Part shown: positions 2,150 to 26,188 of the stretch, piece by piece
Layout of the letters: every line of letters starts with the position of its first letter
Numbering within the stretch: position 1 is the first letter of the stretch
NCBI GenBank assembly: GCA_937872175.1
Contig: CALMPI010000009.1
Coordinates: 198,343-262,342 of the forward strand
Reading direction: 5' to 3'
Source of the DNA: an uncultured Flavobacteriales bacterium
Lineage (GTDB): Bacteria; Bacteroidota; Bacteroidia; Flavobacteriales_F; PHOS-HE28
DNA: 64,000 nucleotides
The notes under the pieces: generated by a model
Told to the model about the DNA's origin: nothing
Database searches by the model: none
What the model saw: the letters and a program-made list of their open reading frames with translations, nothing else
Position numbers and translations under genes: made by a program

Positions 2150-4321
2150 TCAGGGCAGCTGCTCCAGGCGCACGGCGGTAGGGGTCACCCCGCCGATGGT
2201 CACCAGTACCAGGTCGCGGTCATTGCGCGAACCGGTGTACTTCACCAGCCCGTCCAGGTTCACATCGGCCTGCAGGTAGCCGCTGCTCACGGCCGTGGGC
2301 GGCGTGCCACCGATGGACACGAGCACCGCATCGCGGTCGTTACCGGCACCCACGTAGCTCACCTTGCCATCAAGGGTGGCATTGCCGGTCCACAAGGTGC
2401 GCAGGAGGCCCCGCTCGCGGCGCGGATCGGTGCCGAAGCAGGCGGTGGTCGGGTCGCGCAGGTCGAGCGACAGGGTGGAGGTACCCAGATCGAGCGGGGC
2501 GGCCGACATGAGCGCCAGGTGGTTGCGATGCCTTACGGCGACATGGGCGAAGCGCGCCGGGGCCGTCATGATCAATGGCGACACCCCGTCCAGGGAGACC
2601 ACCTGGCCGTTCCGTTGCAGGAGGGCGGGAGTGCGGTCGAGCAGCACGGTGGGGTCGGCCGCGTCGCGCAGTTCGATCAGGATCCAGTCCACCACGGCCT
2701 CGGGACCACTGTTGCTGAGCGCGCCCGGCGTCAGGGTGGCACCCGGACCTGCGGTGGGGGTGAGGCCCAGGGCGGAATAGGGCTCCTCCTCGGGGATCAG
2801 GCCCTGCACCCGCAGTTCGTCGCGCATCCAGCCGAGCAGCGGTTCGAAGGGACCGTCGAGCAACAGGTCCACGTTCATCTCCAGTTCATGCGGCAGCACC
2901 GTGACGGGGATGCTCGCGCACACCGTGGTGTCCAGCGCATTGGCCACCTGCAGCTCGGCGATGAAGCTGCCGGGACCGGTGAAGGTGTGCTGCACGGATG
3001 CCCCGGTGGAAGCCGGCTGTCCATCGGACCAGGACCAGGTGAAGGTGGGCGTGCCGCCCAAGGGGTCCACGGCCTGCGCGGTGAAGGACACGGTGAGCTG
3101 GGGTCCCACGCCCAGGGTCAGATCGGCCTCAGCGCTCACGCATTGGGGGCCGGAGGAGGGGGTGTGGATGATCCGCTTCACCGCGCCGGTGAACGCGGGC
3201 AGGTCGTAGTAAGAGAGGTAGAAGAGGTCGCCTCCGGGGCCGGGCAGCAGCTGCGTGCAGAAGTTGGCCTGGGTGCCTCCGTAGAGGGTGGTGTCCATGA
3301 AGGTCCCTTCGGCCACCACCGCGCCCAAGGCGTCCAGCTGGGCCCACTTCACCCAACCGCGGATGAAGTCGCCGTAGAAATAACGTCCGTTCCAGATGCC
3401 GGGGTAGTTGTTTCCGCGGTAGGTGGCCCCACCGGTGACGGCCGCGCCGAGGCCCAGGTGCGGGTACGTGATCAAAGGGTCGGTGAAGGCCGGGTCATCA
3501 CAGCTGCCGTCCGGCAACCGTCCGAGCTCACCGCAGAAGGGCCATCCGAAGTTGGCACCGGGTGCGGCGAGATGCACGTCCTCCCAGGCCAGCGCGTGGT
3601 TGTTGGCGCCCACGGTGCCGATGAGGAAGCGGCCGGTCTCCGGGTCCAGATGGCCGCGAAAGGGGTTGCGAAGGCCGCTGCAGTAGATGGTCTTCAGCAC
3701 CCCGTTGGCGTTCAAGGGCCCTGGTGTGGCGTCGGCGAAGGGATTGTCCTCGGGCGCTGTGCCGTCCCATCGGAAGCGGTGAAGCTTGCCGAAGGCGCTG
3801 GCCATGTCCTGTGCGTTCGCCGGGGTGTAGTCATCGCCGACGGCCAGCAGGATCGTGGTGTCCGGAAGAAAGGCAAGAGCACCACCGGTGTGGCAGCAAC
3901 CCGAATAGACCGGGGTCTCCCAGATCACCGTTTCACTGGTCACCAGCGCGTTGCCTCCGAGGTGTTTGAAGGTGGACAGGCGGTTGCGTTGGCCGCCGGT
4001 CGAGCGGTACACGAACACCAGTGAATCCGTGGCGAAGAAGGGGCTGATCCAGAGGCCCACCAGGCCATGCTCGGCGCTGTTGTCCACGGGCGCCACCAGG
4101 TAGGTGGTCAGGCTCACCGGCGCCTGGTCCACCGGGGTGGTGGAGATGCGGATGAGGCCGTCCTTCTGGCCCACGAGCATGCGGCCATCGGGCAGGAAAG
4201 CGGCGGCGGTGGGGGCGTTGATGCCGCTGGCGATGGTGGTGACGGCGAAGCCGGGAGGCTGGGCGGTCGTGGCCAGGACGGTGAGGAGAAGCGGCGTAAG
4301 GAGCAGGTGTCGAAGGGGCAT
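2150..4321 (-). CDS. Secreted PQQ-dependent sugar dehydrogenase (soluble glucose/sorbosone dehydrogenase family) with an internal PKD-like domain and a C-terminal tandem dockerin-like repeat
   Basis: The signal peptide MPLRHLLLTPLLLTVLATTAQ at an internal Met (about 4321) was preferred to the track start at 4399. The GSDH beta-propeller motifs GLVGLWISPFF and GLRNPFRGHLDPETGR...GANFGWPFCGE are present. A PKD-like segment (TFTWSWSDGQ...) follows. The C-terminus carries two related ~30-aa repeats containing NxDGxV loops. Confidence 0.75.
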   Translation of the reverse strand: MPLRHLLLTPLLLTVLATTAQPPGFAVTTIASGINAPTAAAFLPDGRMLVGQKDGLIRISTTPVDQAPVSLTTYLVAPVDNSAEHGLVGLWISPFFATDSLVFVYRSTGGQRNRLSTFKHLGGNALVTSETVIWETPVYSGCCHTGGALAFLPDTTILLAVGDDYTPANAQDMASAFGKLHRFRWDGTAPEDNPFADATPGPLNANGVLKTIYCSGLRNPFRGHLDPETGRFLIGTVGANNHALAWEDVHLAAPGANFGWPFCGELGRLPDGSCDDPAFTDPLITYPHLGLGAAVTGGATYRGNNYPGIWNGRYFYGDFIRGWVKWAQLDALGAVVAEGTFMDTTLYGGTQANFCTQLLPGPGGDLFYLSYYDLPAFTGAVKRIIHTPSSGPQCVSAEADLTLGVGPQLTVSFTAQAVDPLGGTPTFTWSWSDGQPASTGASVQHTFTGPGSFIAELQVANALDTTVCASIPVTVLPHELEMNVDLLLDGPFEPLLGWMRDELRVQGLIPEEEPYSALGLTPTAGPGATLTPGALSNSGPEAVVDWILIELRDAADPTVLLDRTPALLQRNGQVVSLDGVSPLIMTAPARFAHVAVRHRNHLALMSAAPLDLGTSTLSLDLRDPTTACFGTDPRRERGLLRTLWTGNATLDGKVSYVGAGNDRDAVLVSIGGTPPTAVSSGYLQADVNLDGLVKYTGSRNDRDLVLVTIGGVTPTAVRLEQLP

Positions 4322-6015: not shown

Positions 6016-6621
6016 TTACTTGGAGTACAGTTCCACGATGAGCTGTTCGCGGATGTTCTCCGGGATCTGGGCGCGCTCGGGCATCGCGATGAGCTTGCCG
6101 GAGAGGGTGGAGGGGTTCCACTCGAGCCAGTCGAAGCGCTTGTGCGCGGAGGACACGCTGTTGGTGATGGCCTCCAGGCTCCTGCTCTTCTCGCGCACGG
6201 CCACGCTCTGGCCGGGGCGCAGGGAATAGCTGGGCACGTTCACCACCTGTTGGTCAACCGTGATGTGGCCGTGGCTCACCAGCTGGCGGGCGGCGCGGCG
6301 GGTGGGGGCGATGCCCAGGCGGTACACGGTGTTGTCGAGACGGGCCTCGCAGAGCTGCAGCAGGGTCTCACCCGTGATGCCCTTCTTGCTCGCGGCCACC
6401 CCGAACATCTTCTGGAACTGGCGCTCCAGGATGCCGTAGGTGTACTTCGCCTTCTGCTTCTCGGCGAGCTGGAGGGCGTACTCGCTCTCTTTCTTGCGGC
6501 GCTTGGTCGGTCCGTGCTGCCCTGGGCTGTACGGCTTGCGCTCCATCCACTTGTCCTCACCGTAGATGGGTTCCTTGAACTTGCGCGCGATCTTGGTCTG
6601 TGGTCCGGTGTAACGTGCCAT
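6016..6621 (-). CDS. rpsD: 30S ribosomal protein S4
   Basis: [15 protein letters not shown]... with the S4 domain LDNTVYRLG. Confidence 0.95.
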
Positions 6622-19091: not shown

Positions 19092-19397
19092 TCAGACCTT
19101 GATCTCCACGTCCACGCCGCTGGGGAGCTCCAGTTTCATCAGGGCATCGATCGTCTTGCTCGACGAGCTGTAGATGTCCATCAGGCGCTTGTAGCTGCAG
19201 AGCTGGAACTGTTCGCGGGCCTTCTTGTTGACGTGCGGGCTGCGCAGCACGGTGAAGATGCGCTTGTGGGTGGGCAGGGGGATGGGACCGCTCACCACGG
19301 CGCCCGTGCTCTTCACGGTCTTCACGATCTTCTCGGCGCTCTTGTCGACGAGGTTGTGATCGTAGGACCTCAGCTTGATGCGGATCTTTTGGGTCAT
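19092..19397 (-). CDS. rpsJ: 30S ribosomal protein S10
   Basis: An internal Met ([25 protein letters not shown]) was chosen. The 11-aa upstream extension in the track would overlap fusA. Confidence 0.92.
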
Positions 19398-19410
19398 CGC
19401 AGTTGGGGGG

Positions 19411-21516
<2,106 letters not shown>

Positions 21517-21534
21517 GTGGCTGTGCTCGTTGGC

Positions 21535-22005
21535 TTAGAAGCGGAAGTGGCTGAAGGCCTTGTTCGCTTCGGCCATTTTGTGGACTTCTTCTTTCTTTTT
21601 GAACGCGGCGCCCTCCTCCTTGCTGGCTGCGAGGATCTCGTTGGCGAGCTTCTGGGCCATGCTGCGCTCATTGCGGCCGCGGCTGTAGCCGATGAGCCAC
21701 TTCATGGCCAGGCTGCGCTTGCGGTCGTCGCGCACCGGCTGGGGGATCTGGAAGTTGGCACCGCCCACCCGGCGCGTGCGCACCTCCACCTGGGGGGTCA
21801 CGTTCTGCAGGGCCTTGCGCCACACCTCCAGGCCGTCCTCTCCGCTCTTCTCACCCACGATGTCGATCGCGTTGTAGAAGATGTCGAAGGCCTTGTTCTT
21901 CTTCCCCGAGTACATCAGGTTGTTCACGAACTTGGTCACCAACACATCGCCGAACTTGGGGTCGGGCAGGGTGGTGACGTACCGGTTGGTCGTGGTCTTG
22001 CGCAT
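21535..22005 (-). CDS. rpsG: 30S ribosomal protein S7
   Basis: 156 aa, LPDPKFGDVLVTKFVNNLMYSGKKNKA. Confidence 0.95.
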   Translation of the reverse strand: MRKTTTNRYVTTLPDPKFGDVLVTKFVNNLMYSGKKNKAFDIFYNAIDIVGEKSGEDGLEVWRKALQNVTPQVEVRTRRVGGANFQIPQPVRDDRKRSLAMKWLIGYSRGRNERSMAQKLANEILAASKEEGAAFKKKEEVHKMAEANKAFSHFRF

Positions 22006-22011
22006 GACAGC

Positions 22012-22410
<399 letters not shown>

Positions 22411-22696
22411 CGGCTCGTTTTCTCTTGTCTTTCAGTTGTTTCCGCCCAGTTTGGGCGCGAAAAACGGGCTGCAAAGGTAGATATCCCGGCCTTTCAACCA
22501 ACTCCTGTTGAAGGAATTTTCCGCACGGGGCCCGGGTCGGTACCCCTCACAGGCGCCGGACCCATCGGGTGGATTGTTTATAACTAGCTGAAAGACAGGG
22601 TATAGTACGCGGTCGGCGTTGGGCCGGTCCTTCTCTTCCCGGGGCCTCCGCGCGGGTCGTCGGCCGGTGCCGTTCGTTGTGTTCGTTTAGCTTTGT
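22411..22696. promoter_or_regulatory. Divergent non-coding region containing the str-operon (rpsL) promoter/leader and the Fic-gene promoter; there is a relatively AT-rich patch at about 22575-22610 and a TAnnTTTG-like element (tagctttg) at about 22688-22695
   Basis: 286-nt gap between genes that start in opposite directions. It is the only low-GC patch (ttataactagctgaaagacagggtatagtac). The call rests on motif resemblance only. Confidence 0.3.
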
Positions 22697-23686
22697 ATGG
22701 TATCAAATGATCTTATCGTGATCTCATCCGCTTACACCTTTTACACCTTCCACAGCCGGATGCTGAACCTGCTGACGACCATCCACCACCGGCTGGGCGA
22801 AGTACAGGCCCGGCACCTGCACACTCCGCTTCCCGAGCTGTCCAAGGCCTACCGGGTCAGCGCCGTGCATGCCATGTTGGGCTTGGAGGGCAGCGTGCTG
22901 GACCCGCTCCCCGTGGCGGAGCTGGTGAGCCGACCGTTGGATGGTCAGGACCAGTCCGCCTTGGAGGTGGTGAACACCCACCGGGCGTTGGACCTTCTGC
23001 CAACGCTGGACCCGCACGCGATCGGCGACCTCAGGCAGGCGCACGGTGTGCTGATGCATGGCCTGGCCCTCGATGCCGGGCAGTTCCGCACGGGCCCCAT
23101 GGATGTGCTGTACGGCGATCCCCCCCCCTTGCGCAGAGCTCCGGCGGACGACCTTCCCGTTCAGGTGGCGGAGCTGCTGCACATCGTGGAGAACGACGAC
23201 ACCCCTCCGGTGATCGTAAGCTGCATGTTGCACTTCGCCTTGGTGTACCTGCGCCCCTTCAGCGCGGGGAACGGTCGTCTGGCGCGGCTGTGGCAGCGAC
23301 GGGTGCTCATGCGTCATTGGCCCGTCTTCGCCTATCTGCCCGTGGAGGCCTTCATCCACCGCACGCAGCCGGCCTACTATGCGGCGTTGGAGTATGCGGA
23401 CCGCCAGGGTGATTGCGGCGGTTTCATCGCGTACATGCTGGAACGCATCGATGAGGCCCTGGCCGAGCTGCTGGCCATGCCTGATCCCGTACGCGGCGGG
23501 TCCGAGCGGGTGGCCATCTTCCTGCAACAGGTGCCCGCGAGGTGGTTCCATCGGAAGGACTACCGGTCGCGGTTCCCCGAGCTCAGCACGGCCACGGCCA
23601 GTCGCGATCTGCGCGAAGCGGTGGTCCAGGGGCGGTTGGTGCGGAACGGCGACGGCCGCAATGCCCGCTACAGGGAGGCCGGTTGA
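22697..23686 (+). CDS. Fic/DOC family protein with a C-terminal winged-helix domain; the active-site motif is degenerate (RPFSAGNGR instead of HPFx[DE]GNGR)
   Basis: Fic-fold core (…VIVSCMLHFALVYLRPFSAGNGRLARLWQ…). The catalytic His is replaced by Arg and the acidic residue by Ala. The C-terminal wHTH-like region is …SRFPELSTATASRDLREAVVQGRLVRNGDGRNARY. An alternative start is at Met22 (about 22760). Confidence 0.75.
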   Translation: MVSNDLIVISSAYTFYTFHSRMLNLLTTIHHRLGEVQARHLHTPLPELSKAYRVSAVHAMLGLEGSVLDPLPVAELVSRPLDGQDQSALEVVNTHRALDLLPTLDPHAIGDLRQAHGVLMHGLALDAGQFRTGPMDVLYGDPPPLRRAPADDLPVQVAELLHIVENDDTPPVIVSCMLHFALVYLRPFSAGNGRLARLWQRRVLMRHWPVFAYLPVEAFIHRTQPAYYAALEYADRQGDCGGFIAYMLERIDEALAELLAMPDPVRGGSERVAIFLQQVPARWFHRKDYRSRFPELSTATASRDLREAVVQGRLVRNGDGRNARYREAG

Positions 23687-23692
23687 CCGGCA

Positions 23693-26188
23693 TCACCGCA
23701 CGATCGTGCAGCGCCCGACCCCGCGTTCAAGCCCCTGCGGTCCCACAACGGTCACCTGAACGGTCTGTGCCGGCAGGTCCTCCACGGAAACGTGGGTGAA
23801 CGGTTGCACGAGGGCGGCTTCACGGAGGAGGCGACCGGCTTGGTCGCGCAGCCGGACCACGGTTCCGCGGGGCGGATCGCCGGGCCAGGCGATCGTCAGC
23901 TGCTCCGAGGTGGGATCCGGCCAGGTGCGGACGCCCGGTATGCCCGGGACCGGAGGCAGACCCACCGCGCTGGTCCGGCGCGCCAGGGTGTAGTCACCGG
24001 GTTGCAGGCCTTCGGCCTCGATGCGACCGGTGCGGTCCGTGGGGCTGTTCAGGGTGGTGCGGGTCTGCTGCGGCCAGGGGCTCCAGGGGAAGTGGGCGTT
24101 GGGCCGGTGAAGCAGCAGCACGCTGTCCTCGTGGAAGGGCAGGCCAGGCAGGTCCGCCATCAGGCCCACATCCAGGCCCCCGGCGCTGTTGGCACGCCCA
24201 TCGTAGGTGATGCGGGCGCGGATCTGTGTGCCGGTGGGAAAGCTGCCATGCACACGCCACCACCGGTCCGGTGACAGCATGTAGAGGAAGGGAGGGTCCG
24301 TCCATGCATCGGCCGCGGTCCAGTATTGCTCCACCCGCAGCGGGGTGGGGGTGGGGATGCTCTGGGCGATGAGCATCACGTCGGCCTGCTGGAGGTTCAC
24401 CGTGCCCGGCCCGTTCAGCGTGTCCTCCACGGCGGTGACGGCCTGGCTGATGCGGTCGTCGGCGTTGAGCAGGACGTCCACCGGAGCGAACGGCGCGTCC
24501 ACGGTGAAGGTGGTCTGCGCACCGCCCAAGGGTATGGGATCGCCCGGGCTCCAGCGATCGCCCGTCGCGCTCACGAAGGTCACCGACATGGGCACATCGG
24601 AATAGAGGTGTTGCGCGGCCCGGAGCTTCTGTTCGACATGCACCGTGGTGCTGAACACAGCGCCCTGCGGCACCACGGCGAAGGAGTCCACTTCGAAGCC
24701 GGCCCATCCGGGTTGCAGGATCCAGTCGTCGAAAAAGGCCGTGAGGTCCTGCCCGGTGGCGGCGGAGAGGTGGTCGCGCAACTGCGTCGTGGTCACGGGC
24801 TGAAAGGCGTAGGTGTCCAGAAAGCTCGTGAGCCCGCTGCAGAAGGCCGCATCGCCGAGGTAGCTGCGGAGCGTGTGCAGCACGTCGGCGCCCTTGTTGT
24901 AGCTGTGCTCGCCGTAGGTCCATTCCTGCGGCACCTCCGAAAGGGCGTAGTGTTCGCCACCGTCCTCCCAATGACAGCGGCGCAACATGGCGTAGTGGTT
25001 GGCGCGCACGGTGTTCCGGTAGCGTCCCGGCCCATGCACCGCTTCCAGGAAGAGATAGCTGAGGTACTCGGCGAAGCCCTCGTTGATGTACATCTCCTCG
25101 GCCCGTGCGCACGTGACCAGGTCGCCGAACCATTGGTGGGCCAGTTCATGGGCCATGGTGGCCTCGTATTGGGTGGAGCCGTCGGCGATGAAGTCGGGGT
25201 AGGTGATGTTGGTGCTGTGCTCCATGGCACCGCGGCTGGCCAGGTGATATCCGATCCGGTTCCATCGGTAGGCGCCGAAGCAGCTCTCGAACCGATCGAA
25301 GGCGTTCTGAAGGTGCACGAAGGAGGCGCGGAGCTGGGCGGTGTCCGCGGGGAGGGCCACGAGGTCCACCGGCACGGTGTCACCGTCGATGCTCGTGAAG
25401 GCCAGGTGGACATTGCGGTAGTTGCCGGCGGCCACCGAGGCCAGGTAGCCCGGGATCGGCTCCAGCAGTTCCCATTCGGTGAGGAGGGTGTCACCGCCGA
25501 GCGGGGTGGTGCCCAGCAGGCGGCCGTTGCACCATGCGCTTCGTGGCCCGTTGGTGGTGATGTGGAAGCTGAAGGAGGAGCGCTCCACGAAGTTGTCGAA
25601 GCAAGGGAACCAGCTGCGGCCGTAGCTGTGGGGTTGGCTGGTGAAGGCCACGCCCAGGTTGTAGAGGTATTGGCTCTCCAGATAGAAGCCTCCGAAGTTG
25701 CTGGGGTCGGTGGCGGGTTCGCCCTGATAGTGCACGGCGATCTCCACTTCATCCCCGGGGCCGTAGGGCTGGCCGAGGTCCACGAGCAGGGTTCCGCCGC
25801 TGTGGATGAACCCCAGGCCAAGGCCGTTGGCGTCCCGCACCGAATCGACCGTCAGGTCGATCAGGTCCAGGCGGATGGCGTCCACACCGGGCACGAGCGG
25901 AGCGAAGCGCAGCACGGTGCGGGCCGAGATGCGATCGTTCGCCCATGCGGTGAGGTCGAGGTGGATGGCGGTATGGAGGATGTCGATGCTGTCGCTGCGC
26001 TGGTCCTGCAGACCGCTGCGGTGCGGGGAGGCGTCACCTGGTCGTTTGGCCTCCAGGCACGTGGTCTGTGCGGTCGCGGAGGAGAGGGCGATGAGGCTGG
26101 CGATCAGGGGCGGCAGGCGCATGGGCGGGAGGTGCGAACGAAGGGTCGGGCTGGTCTGTTCCATCCTCGGTGCAGGGGCCTTCGTCAC
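23693..26188 (-). CDS. Secreted M1-family zinc aminopeptidase (aminopeptidase N-like) with a probable T9SS type-A C-terminal sorting domain
   Basis: GAMEH plus HELAHQWFG-x18-E gluzincin motifs. A signal peptide (MRLPPLIASLIALSSATAQ) begins at an internal Met near 26122; the track start at 26188 is a non-ATG codon. The ~80-aa C-terminus (…LTIAWPGDPPRGTVVRLRDQAGRLL…VTVVGPQG…) resembles a Por secretion tail. Confidence 0.8.
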   Translation of the reverse strand: MTKAPAPRMEQTSPTLRSHLPPMRLPPLIASLIALSSATAQTTCLEAKRPGDASPHRSGLQDQRSDSIDILHTAIHLDLTAWANDRISARTVLRFAPLVPGVDAIRLDLIDLTVDSVRDANGLGLGFIHSGGTLLVDLGQPYGPGDEVEIAVHYQGEPATDPSNFGGFYLESQYLYNLGVAFTSQPHSYGRSWFPCFDNFVERSSFSFHITTNGPRSAWCNGRLLGTTPLGGDTLLTEWELLEPIPGYLASVAAGNYRNVHLAFTSIDGDTVPVDLVALPADTAQLRASFVHLQNAFDRFESCFGAYRWNRIGYHLASRGAMEHSTNITYPDFIADGSTQYEATMAHELAHQWFGDLVTCARAEEMYINEGFAEYLSYLFLEAVHGPGRYRNTVRANHYAMLRRCHWEDGGEHYALSEVPQEWTYGEHSYNKGADVLHTLRSYLGDAAFCSGLTSFLDTYAFQPVTTTQLRDHLSAATGQDLTAFFDDWILQPGWAGFEVDSFAVVPQGAVFSTTVHVEQKLRAAQHLYSDVPMSVTFVSATGDRWSPGDPIPLGGAQTTFTVDAPFAPVDVLLNADDRISQAVTAVEDTLNGPGTVNLQQADVMLIAQSIPTPTPLRVEQYWTAADAWTDPPFLYMLSPDRWWRVHGSFPTGTQIRARITYDGRANSAGGLDVGLMADLPGLPFHEDSVLLLHRPNAHFPWSPWPQQTRTTLNSPTDRTGRIEAEGLQPGDYTLARRTSAVGLPPVPGIPGVRTWPDPTSEQLTIAWPGDPPRGTVVRLRDQAGRLLREAALVQPFTHVSVEDLPAQTVQVTVVGPQGLERGVGRCTIVR

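Follow-up and report, generated by a model that had tools for sequence, protein, structure and literature searches.

[quoted passage not shown] All characterised Fic enzymes depend on the His of the HPFx[DE]GNGR signature as base and on its Asp/Glu to coordinate the metal (PMC4454073). CccR of Yersinia pseudotuberculosis, a T6SS effector and transcription factor, represses itself at a palindromic operator that has ATCAT/ATGAT in its half-sites, and this repression does not depend on AMPylation (PMC9755527); like the protein described here, it is a class II Fic protein with an N-terminal inhibitory motif and a C-terminal wHTH. SoFic and EcSofic, the anti-phage abortive-infection toxins of Shewanella and E. 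coli, share the same domain order (bioRxiv 10.64898/2026.07.09.737422; PMC12249575), and the DNA bound by the SoFic dimer is the 100 bp that immediately precede its own start codon (bioRxiv 10.64898/2026.07.09.737422). The closest solved structure is that of Dde_2494 from Desulfovibrio alaskensis G20 (PDB 4rgl), which is similar in length (325–343 residues) and architecture, with about 28% identity (250 aligned residues, E 5e-38; full-length Foldseek match, E 8.5e-18).

The gene studied here lies in a 64,000-nucleotide stretch of DNA from an uncultured Flavobacteriales bacterium, which is called the window below. The sequence-only reading had placed the gene at 22697-23686. This mechanical ORF of 329 aa on the plus strand, counted from ATG 22697, does exist, but the start comparison makes GTG 22718 the probable true start, which would give a product of 322 aa. 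The first residue of 93 of the 116 homologues fell on query position 8, the ATG of the closest relatives aligned exactly with GTG 22718, and 322-aa gene calls were present in 7 of 10 near-identical contigs. Residues 1–9 were disordered in the AlphaFold model (pLDDT <50). The genome has a high GC content, which gives rise to many spurious ORFs. The translated product matched the Fic family PF02661 with 39.7 bits (E 9e-10) against a gathering threshold of 24.

At the place where HPFxDGNGR is expected, the protein has RPFSAGNGR, with Arg186 standing for the catalytic His and Ala190 for the metal-binding Asp/Glu. The register was given by phmmer, where the query segment vylRPFSAGNGRLARLW was paired with fiHPFADGNGRMGRLW of 4rgl (E 5e-38) and the same query signature with the FICD segment HPFIDGNGRTSR. 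Both alignments agree with the register read earlier from the letters, and an intact HPFx[DE]GNGR was looked for elsewhere in the protein and was absent. The catalytic signature HxFx(D/E)GN(G/K)RxxR is broken at two positions, since 4rgl and FICD have His where the query has R186 and Asp where it has A190; R197, the second Arg, and the GNGR anion nest are retained. With these His and Asp residues missing, established Fic enzymology predicts that AMPylation is lost in the Arg-type protein.

The search for homologues returned 462 proteins at E ≤1e-5, and R186/A190 was found in 118 of the best 120 of these 462, which were 60–90% identical to the query. The same pair was present in each of the 79 genomic loci in which the motif could be read, so the exchange of His for Arg and of the acid for Ala, noticed in a single sequence, is real and conserved. 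Arg186 was encoded by all six codons (CGC, CGG, CGA, CGT, AGG, and AGA) and Ala190 by all four, and the identities at the three codon positions (0.90/0.95/0.70) are typical of purifying selection. Both residues are kept by such selection, which answers in the affirmative the question whether the orthologues retain Arg. The Arg clade spans more than 100 Flavobacteriales species with full-length orthologues (108 genomic loci), and an alignment of 60 members (A1) had 63 invariant columns. A sharp identity gap separates this clade (≥55%) from the other relatives (≤36%), nearly all of which have HPFxDGNGR and are called His-type here. His-less variants within the His-type clade (L, Q, E, Y, and K) were sporadic singletons. 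The His-type relatives occupy varied genomic contexts, and rpsL was not found within 3 kb of them.

The differences between the two clades are not confined to the signature. Further clade-specific switches (E181G, L113R, H145L, the new R146, and R250) are clustered round the motif and the flap, and the flap signature His145-x-x-Pro148 of the His-type relatives is replaced in the Arg clade. In the alignment compared, E64, H116, R131, H179, P187, F188, GNGR, and R197 were invariant in both clades; in part of the Arg clade the anion nest is eroded, one subclade having GNAR or SNAR and one genome GTGR. Judged from these alignments, the active-site change is a coordinated remodelling and not a two-residue lesion. 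The inhibitory helix has the clade consensus TLAIEG, with T60 in 106, E64 in 117, and G65 in 115 of 117 members, and E64 is invariant across the Arg-type and His-type clades. The query has MLGLEG, which keeps the Glu and the Gly with Met for Thr and places the protein in class II, whose motif (S/T)xxxE(G/N) precedes the Fic core and pairs its Glu with the second Arg of the signature. Because this motif sits in cis, a separate antitoxin ORF of the kind seen in class I FicTA modules is not expected. None was found adjacent to fic: no conserved ORF lies upstream, and downstream only 6 nt separate the fic stop from the end of a convergent gene, which leaves no room. The missing antitoxin ORF reported by the sequence-only reading was therefore confirmed for the adjacent DNA, but its absence is what such a protein would lead one to expect.

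The structure used was that of the alignment-based AlphaFold run (pLDDT 93.8, pTM 0.90); a single-sequence run gave a pLDDT of 36. Foldseek matched it over the full length to the Fic-wHTH structures 4rgl, 8cil, 3eqx, and 7cb8, with a probability of 1.00 against 4rgl, FICD, SoFic, and CbFic2, the SoFic matches being 3eqx and 3zec. The C-terminal wHTH consists of helices at residues 268–278, 286–292, and 298–310 and strands at 314–317 and 324–327. The predicted recognition helix (approximately residues 298–310, STATASRDL) is followed by a beta wing, and S297, A299, R303, D304, and L305 are invariant in A1 and also kept in the His-type relatives. Pfam, phmmer, AlphaFold, and Foldseek all bear out the Fic domain, and AlphaFold and Foldseek the C-terminal wHTH.

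Most of the 79 Arg-clade loci have a TAyCTTTG sequence a few nucleotides 5′ of a palindrome, as do the His-type relatives. This sequence fits the consensus TAnnTTTG, which we take to be the Bacteroidota −7 promoter box. The palindrome, a putative operator, extends over the short fic leader and the point at which transcription is predicted to start. Its core was exact in 70 of the 79 loci, had at most one mismatch in 78, and its position was unchanged. In 864 kb of related loci, 72 of the 75 exact core matches fell at the fic promoter, and the three matches away from it are at chance level. The outer arms co-vary with the symmetry kept: positions −3/+12 were complementary in 77% of loci versus 34% in shuffled pairings, and the observed symmetry was reached by none of 2000 shuffles. 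The −7 box and the palindrome also stand upstream of all seven closest His-type relatives, in unrelated contexts without rpsL. No second operator copy, with up to one mismatch allowed, was present in the 64-kb window, and none was seen close to the rpsL promoter or over the 6 kb of operon sequence examined. An inverted repeat in the own promoter, the feature by which the Fic-wHTH autoregulators CccR, SoFic, and CbFic2 are recognised, is present here as sequence. The suggestion that this is a repurposed Fic protein with a DNA-binding or regulatory role gains support from this conserved dyad, which is common to the catalytically intact relatives.

The fic gene stands head-to-head with rpsL, as had been noticed before; rpsL is the first gene of the divergent rpsL-rpsG-fusA-rpsJ operon on the minus strand. 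The fic gene was divergent from rpsL in all 76 informative species-level loci, that is, those with enough flanking sequence, down to 55% protein identity, and this neighbourhood was also found in all 10 contigs with an identical S12. The downstream neighbours of fic belong to at least 33 unrelated families across the loci; here, the convergent gene is that of an M1 peptidase. The description of fic as an accessory gene does not hold in this lineage, where every related genome with sufficient flanking sequence carries it in syntenic position. A near-invariant block upstream of rpsL is read as its putative promoter, with a −7 box of its own and a second dyad over the presumed −33 region (Table 1).

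Table 1. Coordinates of the features at the fic–rpsL locus (positions in the window)
Feature	Position	Strand	Basis
rpsL (ribosomal protein S12)	22012-22410	-	translation; Pfam of orthologous neighbours
Conserved rpsL promoter block, putative	22466..22516	-	near-invariant in 79-locus alignment
Putative -7 box TACCTTTG of the rpsL block	22472-22479	-	
Dyad TTTCAAC-N8-GTTGAAGG of the rpsL block	22492-22514		
Spacer, rpsL promoter block to fic promoter	22520..22687	.	alignment of loci
Putative Bacteroidota-type -7 box TAGCTTTG of fic gene	22688..22695	+	conserved TAyCTTTG
Dyad-symmetric putative operator ATGGTATCAAATGATCTTAT	22697..22716	.	core ATCAwwTGAT at 22702-22711
Arg-type Fic-wHTH coding sequence, probable	22718..23686	+	start comparison, Pfam, phmmer
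Class II inhibitory-helix motif, MLGLEG in query	22874..22891	+	aligned to SLAIEN (4rgl), AIEGN (FICD)
Degenerate Fic signature RPFSAGNGRLAR	23252..23287	+	alignment; codon usage; clade conservation
C-terminal wHTH	23498..23683	+	AF2 secondary structure; full-length Foldseek matches

The spacer between the two promoters is about 165 nt long and its sequence identity is at chance level, with a weak central island near 22580-22605 of weak information content. Its length is constrained: the operator lay 235–237 nt from the rpsL −7 block in 54 of the 79 loci, with length classes of about 222, 236, and 246, and the fic-uvrD intergenic distance, taken for comparison from the same species, ranged from 28 to 260 nt. 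A WW periodicity of ~11 bp was seen when the spacer alone was measured. Spacer divergence was 1.6–3 times that of fourfold sites of the neighbouring genes; hypermutation was rejected, as this divergence fits a sequence under no constraint when the GC3 bias of the genome is strong. A small ORF in the spacer was rejected because lengths of 162, 163, and 164 nt break the frame, and a conserved RNA structure because the RNAalifold energy was 0 on both strands and single-sequence z values were about −0.3 to −0.4. An Rfam search of 22300-22800 at a permissive threshold gave chance-level matches only. The sigma-70 promoter and terminator scan gave one weak match each, under a model that is not relevant to Bacteroidota promoters.

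Considering these results, we think it on balance probable that the gene encodes a catalysis-dead, autoregulated class II Fic-wHTH protein that acts as a sequence-specific DNA binder. Lacking both the catalytic His and the metal-binding acid, the protein would have its nucleotidyl-transfer chemistry switched off, and a dimer would occupy the 20-bp dyad. Since this putative operator lies just 3′ of the own −7 box and over the transcription start, we propose that the protein represses its own transcription, as do CccR and SoFic, both of which are catalytically active. The Fic domain would be kept as a dimerisation or sensor module and not as an enzyme. The phosphate nest GNGR..R and the inhibitory Glu are kept in a pocket predicted to be far more basic (H186R, D190A, E181G, L113R, R146, and R250), so an anionic ligand or partner is probably bound in the Arg-type pocket without the help of Mg2+; this is weakened by the GNAR, SNAR, and GTGR variants, because the nest is not universal. 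The gene may descend from SoFic-like toxin or defence genes, which are scattered among Bacteroidota; it would have brought its promoter-operator module along to the site next to rpsL and then become fixed across the Flavobacteriales clade, which suggests a toxin-type enzyme turned housekeeping regulator. The geometry of the operator differs from that of CccR, where the half-sites are 26 bp apart and the wHTH domains 70 Å apart; here the half-sites abut, so that the dimer would have to be arranged differently or bind in some other mode. Alternatively, the palindrome may belong to another regulator, and the Arg that invariably replaces the His could serve other chemistry instead of mere binding.

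The universal linkage to rpsL and the fixed spacer length are not explained by autoregulation alone. They would be explained if the operator and the rpsL promoter communicated, with the Arg-type protein regulating the str operon (the rpsL-rpsG-fusA-S10 genes) in cis as well as itself, by looping, wrapping, or bending over ~236 bp. A length-held but sequence-free spacer hints at such an architectural coupling of two divergent promoters; rearrangement has been one-sided, affecting only the downstream side of fic, the spacer shows its ~11-bp periodicity, and divergent pairs of a transcription factor and its target gene are common in bacterial genomes. Nevertheless, we consider str-operon control unlikely: the rpsL side has no second operator in the 6 kb examined, the length classes are not integral helical turns apart, the fixed length may stem from phased upstream DNA of each promoter separately, and the His-type relatives use the same operator with no rpsL nearby. 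If the coupling were true, the protein would be a new regulator of ribosomal-protein genes in Bacteroidota, a group for which little is known of how these genes are controlled. Less likely still, the protein would sense a ligand in a metal-free, strongly basic pocket and regulate the synthesis of ribosomal proteins and EF-G, being mechanically coupled to the str promoter through the spacer when bound at its operator; the ligand could be a nucleotide, an alarmone, or an anion of the polyphosphate type. Such a sensor would represent a new control circuit of the translation machinery in Flavobacteriales derived from a domesticated defence toxin.

That the protein is still an enzyme seems improbable to us, more so than either form of str-operon regulation. 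Arg186 and the new basic residues would then replace the general base and Mg2+ in a transfer or hydrolysis that needs no metal; its target would be a nucleotide or else a modified protein, perhaps a translation factor, given that SoFic and Doc act on EF-Tu. Such a function would agree with the near invariance of Arg186 and Ala190, which show no drift, with the selection on GNGR..R, the inhibitory Glu, and the flap region, and with the fact that the Arg form founded a large clade, whereas the His-less variants of His-type relatives remained singletons. Precedents are the AMPylation of EF-Tu by SoFic (bioRxiv 10.64898/2026.07.09.737422) and the residual activity of IbpA His mutants (PMC4454073). 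However, the base and the metal holder of all characterised Fic enzymes (PMC4454073) are gone here at once, the flap signature is also replaced, and the anion nest is further eroded in some members. The loss of two hallmark catalytic residues, in a high-GC genome that breeds spurious ORFs, could also point to a decaying remnant or a mis-called ORF that lies beside rpsL by chance. This was rejected on the comparative data and keeps hardly any probability, given the full-length orthologues in more than 100 species, the 63 invariant columns among 60 members, the codon pattern with all six Arg codons at position 186, the confident predicted fold, and the conserved promoter and operator.

The closest described systems share some features with the Arg-type protein and differ from it in others. 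The PADLOC SoFic model matched the query (E 9.4e-22, 75.9 bits; the model has no curated cut-off), which lacks the catalytic residues and is encoded at a fixed place beside rpsL, unlike the scattered His-type relatives, and the score against the SoFic equivalog NCBIfam NF046030 was 26.7 bits versus a cut-off of 550. SoFic is catalytically active, AMPylating and deAMPylating EF-Tu, and is toxic when deregulated, and EcSofic has a small downstream antitoxin, AS1. CccR, a distant homologue only, differs in its intact HPFxDGNGR, its AMPylation of FtsZ, its widely spaced half-sites, and its nature as a secreted accessory effector. Dde_2494, a structural-genomics protein, is a canonical class II Fic with HPFADGNGR and SLAIEN. 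AvrB and Bartonella BepC, which has a non-canonical FIC motif, are motif-degenerate Fido proteins. Clade D2 of Doc has Gln in place of the His (PMC4454073). In these proteins, as in ours, the signature is altered yet conserved, and they are thought to act by binding or other chemistry, but none of them combines Arg for His and Ala for Asp with a wHTH and an autoregulatory operator, and none is encoded by a core chromosomal gene linked to an operon for ribosomal proteins. In the Arg clade, a mobile toxin-type gene appears to have been domesticated beside one of the most conserved operons of bacteria. The clade represents a natural separation of function, in which the catalytic residues are gone and the wHTH, the operator, and most of the pocket are under selection in more than 100 species; it may therefore offer a clean system for the non-catalytic role of Fic-wHTH proteins.

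The product of fic passed the Pfam Fic threshold (39.7 bits, cut-off 24), and among solved structures the closest relative was 4rgl, a Fic protein of Desulfovibrio (E 5e-38), with FICD next. Its score against the NCBIfam SoFic equivalog lay below threshold (26.7, cut-off 550), and the SoFic defence model of PADLOC was matched only partially. The structure predicted from an alignment of 141 sequences (pLDDT 93.8, pTM 0.90) has a helical core of the Fic type whose flap is a beta-hairpin (E135-137, E146-148), while the C-terminal helices H268-278, H286-292 and H298-310 together with two strands form a predicted winged helix-turn-helix. In Foldseek the alignment with 4rgl covered the full length of the model, and further Fic-wHTH proteins were matched as well, namely M. 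marinum FIC (7cb8), Coxiella Fic2 (8cil) and SoFic (3eqx/3zec); the C-terminal winged helix proposed in the sequence-only reading was thus borne out. The true start is likely the GTG at 22718, giving a product of 322 aa: the first residue corresponded to query residue 8 in 93 of 116 full-length homologues, the ATG of the closest relatives aligned with this GTG, the gene calls on near-identical contigs were mostly 322 aa long, and low confidence in the model was confined to residues 1-9 (counted, as throughout, from the ATG at 22697).

The degenerate signature had been read in the correct register, since the query YLRPFSAGNGRLARLW aligned on FIHPFADGNGRMGRLW of 4rgl and on YIHPFIDGNGRTSRL of FICD. 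Therefore, the catalytic His has given way to Arg186 and the metal-binding Asp to Ala190; Asn192, Arg194 and Arg197 are kept. The N-terminal GLEGSVL aligned with the inhibitory-helix motif AIEGNTL, which places the protein in Fic class II, where the inhibitory helix is part of the same chain, and this helix explains the lack of a cognate antitoxin ORF, which had likewise been noticed correctly. By fold, the protein belongs to the Fic/Fido superfamily and has the class II wHTH-bearing architecture, with the defining catalytic signature absent.

The Arg is retained in the orthologues: of the 120 database proteins closest to the query, which are 60-90% identical and come from Flavobacteriales MAGs, 118 read RPF[TSAG][AS]GNGR. 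When 50%-identity cluster representatives were searched, identity fell abruptly from 56% to ≤36%, and below this gap nearly every protein carried HPFxDGNGR, most had (S/T)xxxE(G/N), and many shared the length and C-terminus of the fic product. Over 78 genomic loci Arg186 was encoded by CGC, CGG, CGA, CGT, AGG and AGA, and Ala190 by all four Ala codons. Compared with a relative of 90% identity, the fic gene of the window had codon-position identities of 0.90/0.95/0.70, and 63 columns across both domains were invariant in the 60-member alignment A1. The clade-wide motif and these three lines of evidence therefore indicate a functional protein under purifying selection and exclude a decaying pseudogene. 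Most relatives were annotated as Flavobacteriales or Bacteroidota MAGs, and the informative sample names were mainly activated sludge, bioreactors and lakes; the closest contig, JADJXH010000004.1 (GCA_016715895.1), matched the window at 95% of nucleotides in fic and at 99% in rpsL.

The former active site was compared between 60 Arg-type sequences and 81 His-type ones, that is, the relatives at ≤36% identity. E64, H116, G128, R131, H179, P187, F188, G191-N192-G193-R194 and R197 were constant in both clades, whereas H186R, D190A, E181G, L113R, H145L, P148A, A94T and N52Y had changed together in the Arg clade, where R146, R250, Y139 and W208 became newly invariant. On balance, two acidic residues have been lost and several basic ones gained around the target-docking flap and the former active site, from which we infer that the Mg-ATP site was converted to a metal-free anion-binding site. 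One subclade (L066, L067, L068 and L075) reads RPFSAGNAR or RPFSASNAR (motif near 6511-6540 and 5934) and one genome (L042) RPFTAGTGR; these variants are further erosion of the phosphate-binding nest, which is thus not absolutely required. The four-member subclade is without a clear TAnnTTTG box, and its start codon lies farther from the palindrome in L066-L068.

The rpsL-fic intergenic region was aligned over 79 loci, comprising the window, 76 of the 80 GTDB species-level loci, and a single locus for each of the database homologues P0032 and P0102.

Features of the rpsL-fic region and its surroundings
Feature	Position	Strand	Remarks
ORF	19375-22587	plus	1070 codons, antisense to fusA, rpsG and rpsL; rejected as a gene, high-GC artefact
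rpsL	22012-22410	minus	rpsG and fusA likewise on minus strand
rpsL-side block			about 110 nt; holds the -7 box and the dyad
Putative Bacteroidota-type -7 box of rpsL, TACCTTTG	22472-22479	minus	
Dyad TTTCAAC-N8-GTTGAAGG	22492-22514		over presumed -33 region of rpsL promoter
Spacer	~22520-22687		~165 nt between promoter blocks
Weak semi-conserved island	22580-22605		mid-spacer; minus-strand reading CTG-N3-TTC-N6-TT-N2-A
Putative TAnnTTTG box of fic, TAGCTTTG	22688-22695		fic side
fic ORF	ATG 22697 to stop 23684-23686	plus	329 codons
Putative operator core ATCAwwTGAT	22702-22711		6 nt after TAnnTTTG box; start codon few nt further
M1-family peptidase-like gene	23693-26188	minus	831 aa; convergent on fic, ending 6 nt past fic stop

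The ATCAwwTGAT core was exact in 70 of the 79 loci and had at most one mismatch in 78, always at the same position. Among 75 exact matches in 864 kb of related loci, 72 lay at the fic promoter, and the other three equal the chance expectation. The whole element spans about 20 bp (wTnrnATCAwwTGATnynAw), and its outer positions co-vary in a way that keeps the dyad symmetry: positions -3/+12 were complementary in 77% of loci vs 34% in shuffled pairings, and the total symmetry was reached by none of 2000 shuffles, the loci being phylogenetically non-independent. Such a pattern is typical of DNA that a symmetric dimer recognises. The element overlaps the predicted transcription start of fic, the classical position of a repressor site. 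A metagenome scan with His-type relatives yielded 80 loci, the seven closest of which were from low-GC Bacteroidota with intact HPF[MIL]DGNGR. A TAyyTTTG-ATAGTATCAAATGAT arrangement, the same as at the fic promoter, preceded all seven genes, no rpsL was found within 3 kb of them, and their neighbours were unrelated to each other; the recognition helix STATASRDL is kept in both clades. Since the operator moves with the gene through unrelated contexts, it is most simply the putative binding site of the gene's own product. One His-type relative (L094, ~2900-3010) carried two operator copies upstream of the gene, ATGATAGTATCAAATGAT... and ATGATAGCATCATTTAATACTATC.

Considering these results, we favour, with reasonable though not high confidence, a model in which the fic product, devoid of catalysis, would bind the dyad operator as a dimer and repress fic transcription, and the remodelled Fic pocket would probably be a ligand- or partner-binding module; autoregulation is the stronger part of this proposal. 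A non-canonical enzymatic activity via Arg186 appears quite improbable. Control of the str operon in cis, as the main rival or as an addition, is somewhat less doubtful but still unlikely. It would fit the linkage, as rpsL was the divergent neighbour of fic in all 76 species-level loci (of 80) whose upstream sequence was long enough for a verdict, in those of the two further homologues and on 10 contigs encoding an identical S12, whereas the downstream neighbours belong to 33 or more unrelated families, UvrD, ABC ATPase and M1 peptidase among them; rearrangements thus occurred repeatedly on one side of fic and never on the other. The fixed spacer length also speaks for it: measured from the -7 block of rpsL, the operator lay at 235-237 nt in 54 of 79 loci, at 238-240 nt in 9, at 220-224 nt in 10 and at 245-246 nt in 5, and indels are not generally rare, as the fic-uvrD intergenic region of the same species varied from 28 to 260 nt. 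However, no operator copy is present near rpsL.

Spacer identity among relatives was at chance level, even where the Fic proteins were 86-90% and S12 100% identical, which fits near-saturated fourfold sites; in closer pairs the rate was 1.6-3x that of fourfold sites. Conserved RNA structure, an Rfam match and a reading frame were sought in the spacer and none was found. WW dinucleotides showed a periodicity of ~11 bp (z 5.6, with mononucleotide shuffles as the sole control). The spacer length may be explained in two ways, namely by upstream DNA that is phased or curved and serves each of the promoters on its own, or by architectural coupling of the operator-bound fic product with the rpsL promoter. 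From the central island it is ~100 nt to the start site of fic and ~120-130 nt to the -7 block of rpsL, and ATCA was enriched at its offset in 21 of 79 loci. GATC- and GGATCC-rich motifs and a recurring GGATCCGTYCGATCAACGGCT element occur in the spacers of L012-L017, L022, L059, L066 and L082, in several lineages 40-60 nt upstream of the palindrome; the window is without them. The rpsL-promoter dyad is altered in other lineages and often still symmetric (CCAACCAATTGGTGTT, GATCCCCGGGGGATG, GGCGAACGATCGCC), which hints at a co-evolving binding site or hairpin. The M1 peptidase-like neighbour is also present in a few species-level relatives (L008-L011, L019, L020) and in L168-L177, the near-identical contigs; elsewhere in the clade its place is taken by UvrD, an ABC ATPase or further genes.

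Clades of Fido proteins without the His were known earlier, such as the Doc D2 clade with Gln (PMC4454073), and SoFic-type proteins are abortive-infection toxins (PMC12249575). In the literature searched, no description was found of the Arg/Ala Fic-wHTH clade, its operator or its rpsL linkage. Regulation of translation-machinery genes by the fic product would be less likely, but of greater interest. Repression by CccR of its own promoter acts through AGATAATCAT-N26-ATGATAATCT and does not depend on the AMPylation activity of CccR (PMC9755527), and dimeric SoFic binds the 100 bp that precede its start codon (bioRxiv 10.64898/2026.07.09.737422). The half-site core of CccR resembles that of the fic operator, but the half-sites are spaced by 26 bp in CccR and abut here, a difference that is a real uncertainty on the binding geometry of the fic product. 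CccR and SoFic, which are more distant Fic-wHTH proteins, provide the functional precedent for the proposed fic autoregulation.
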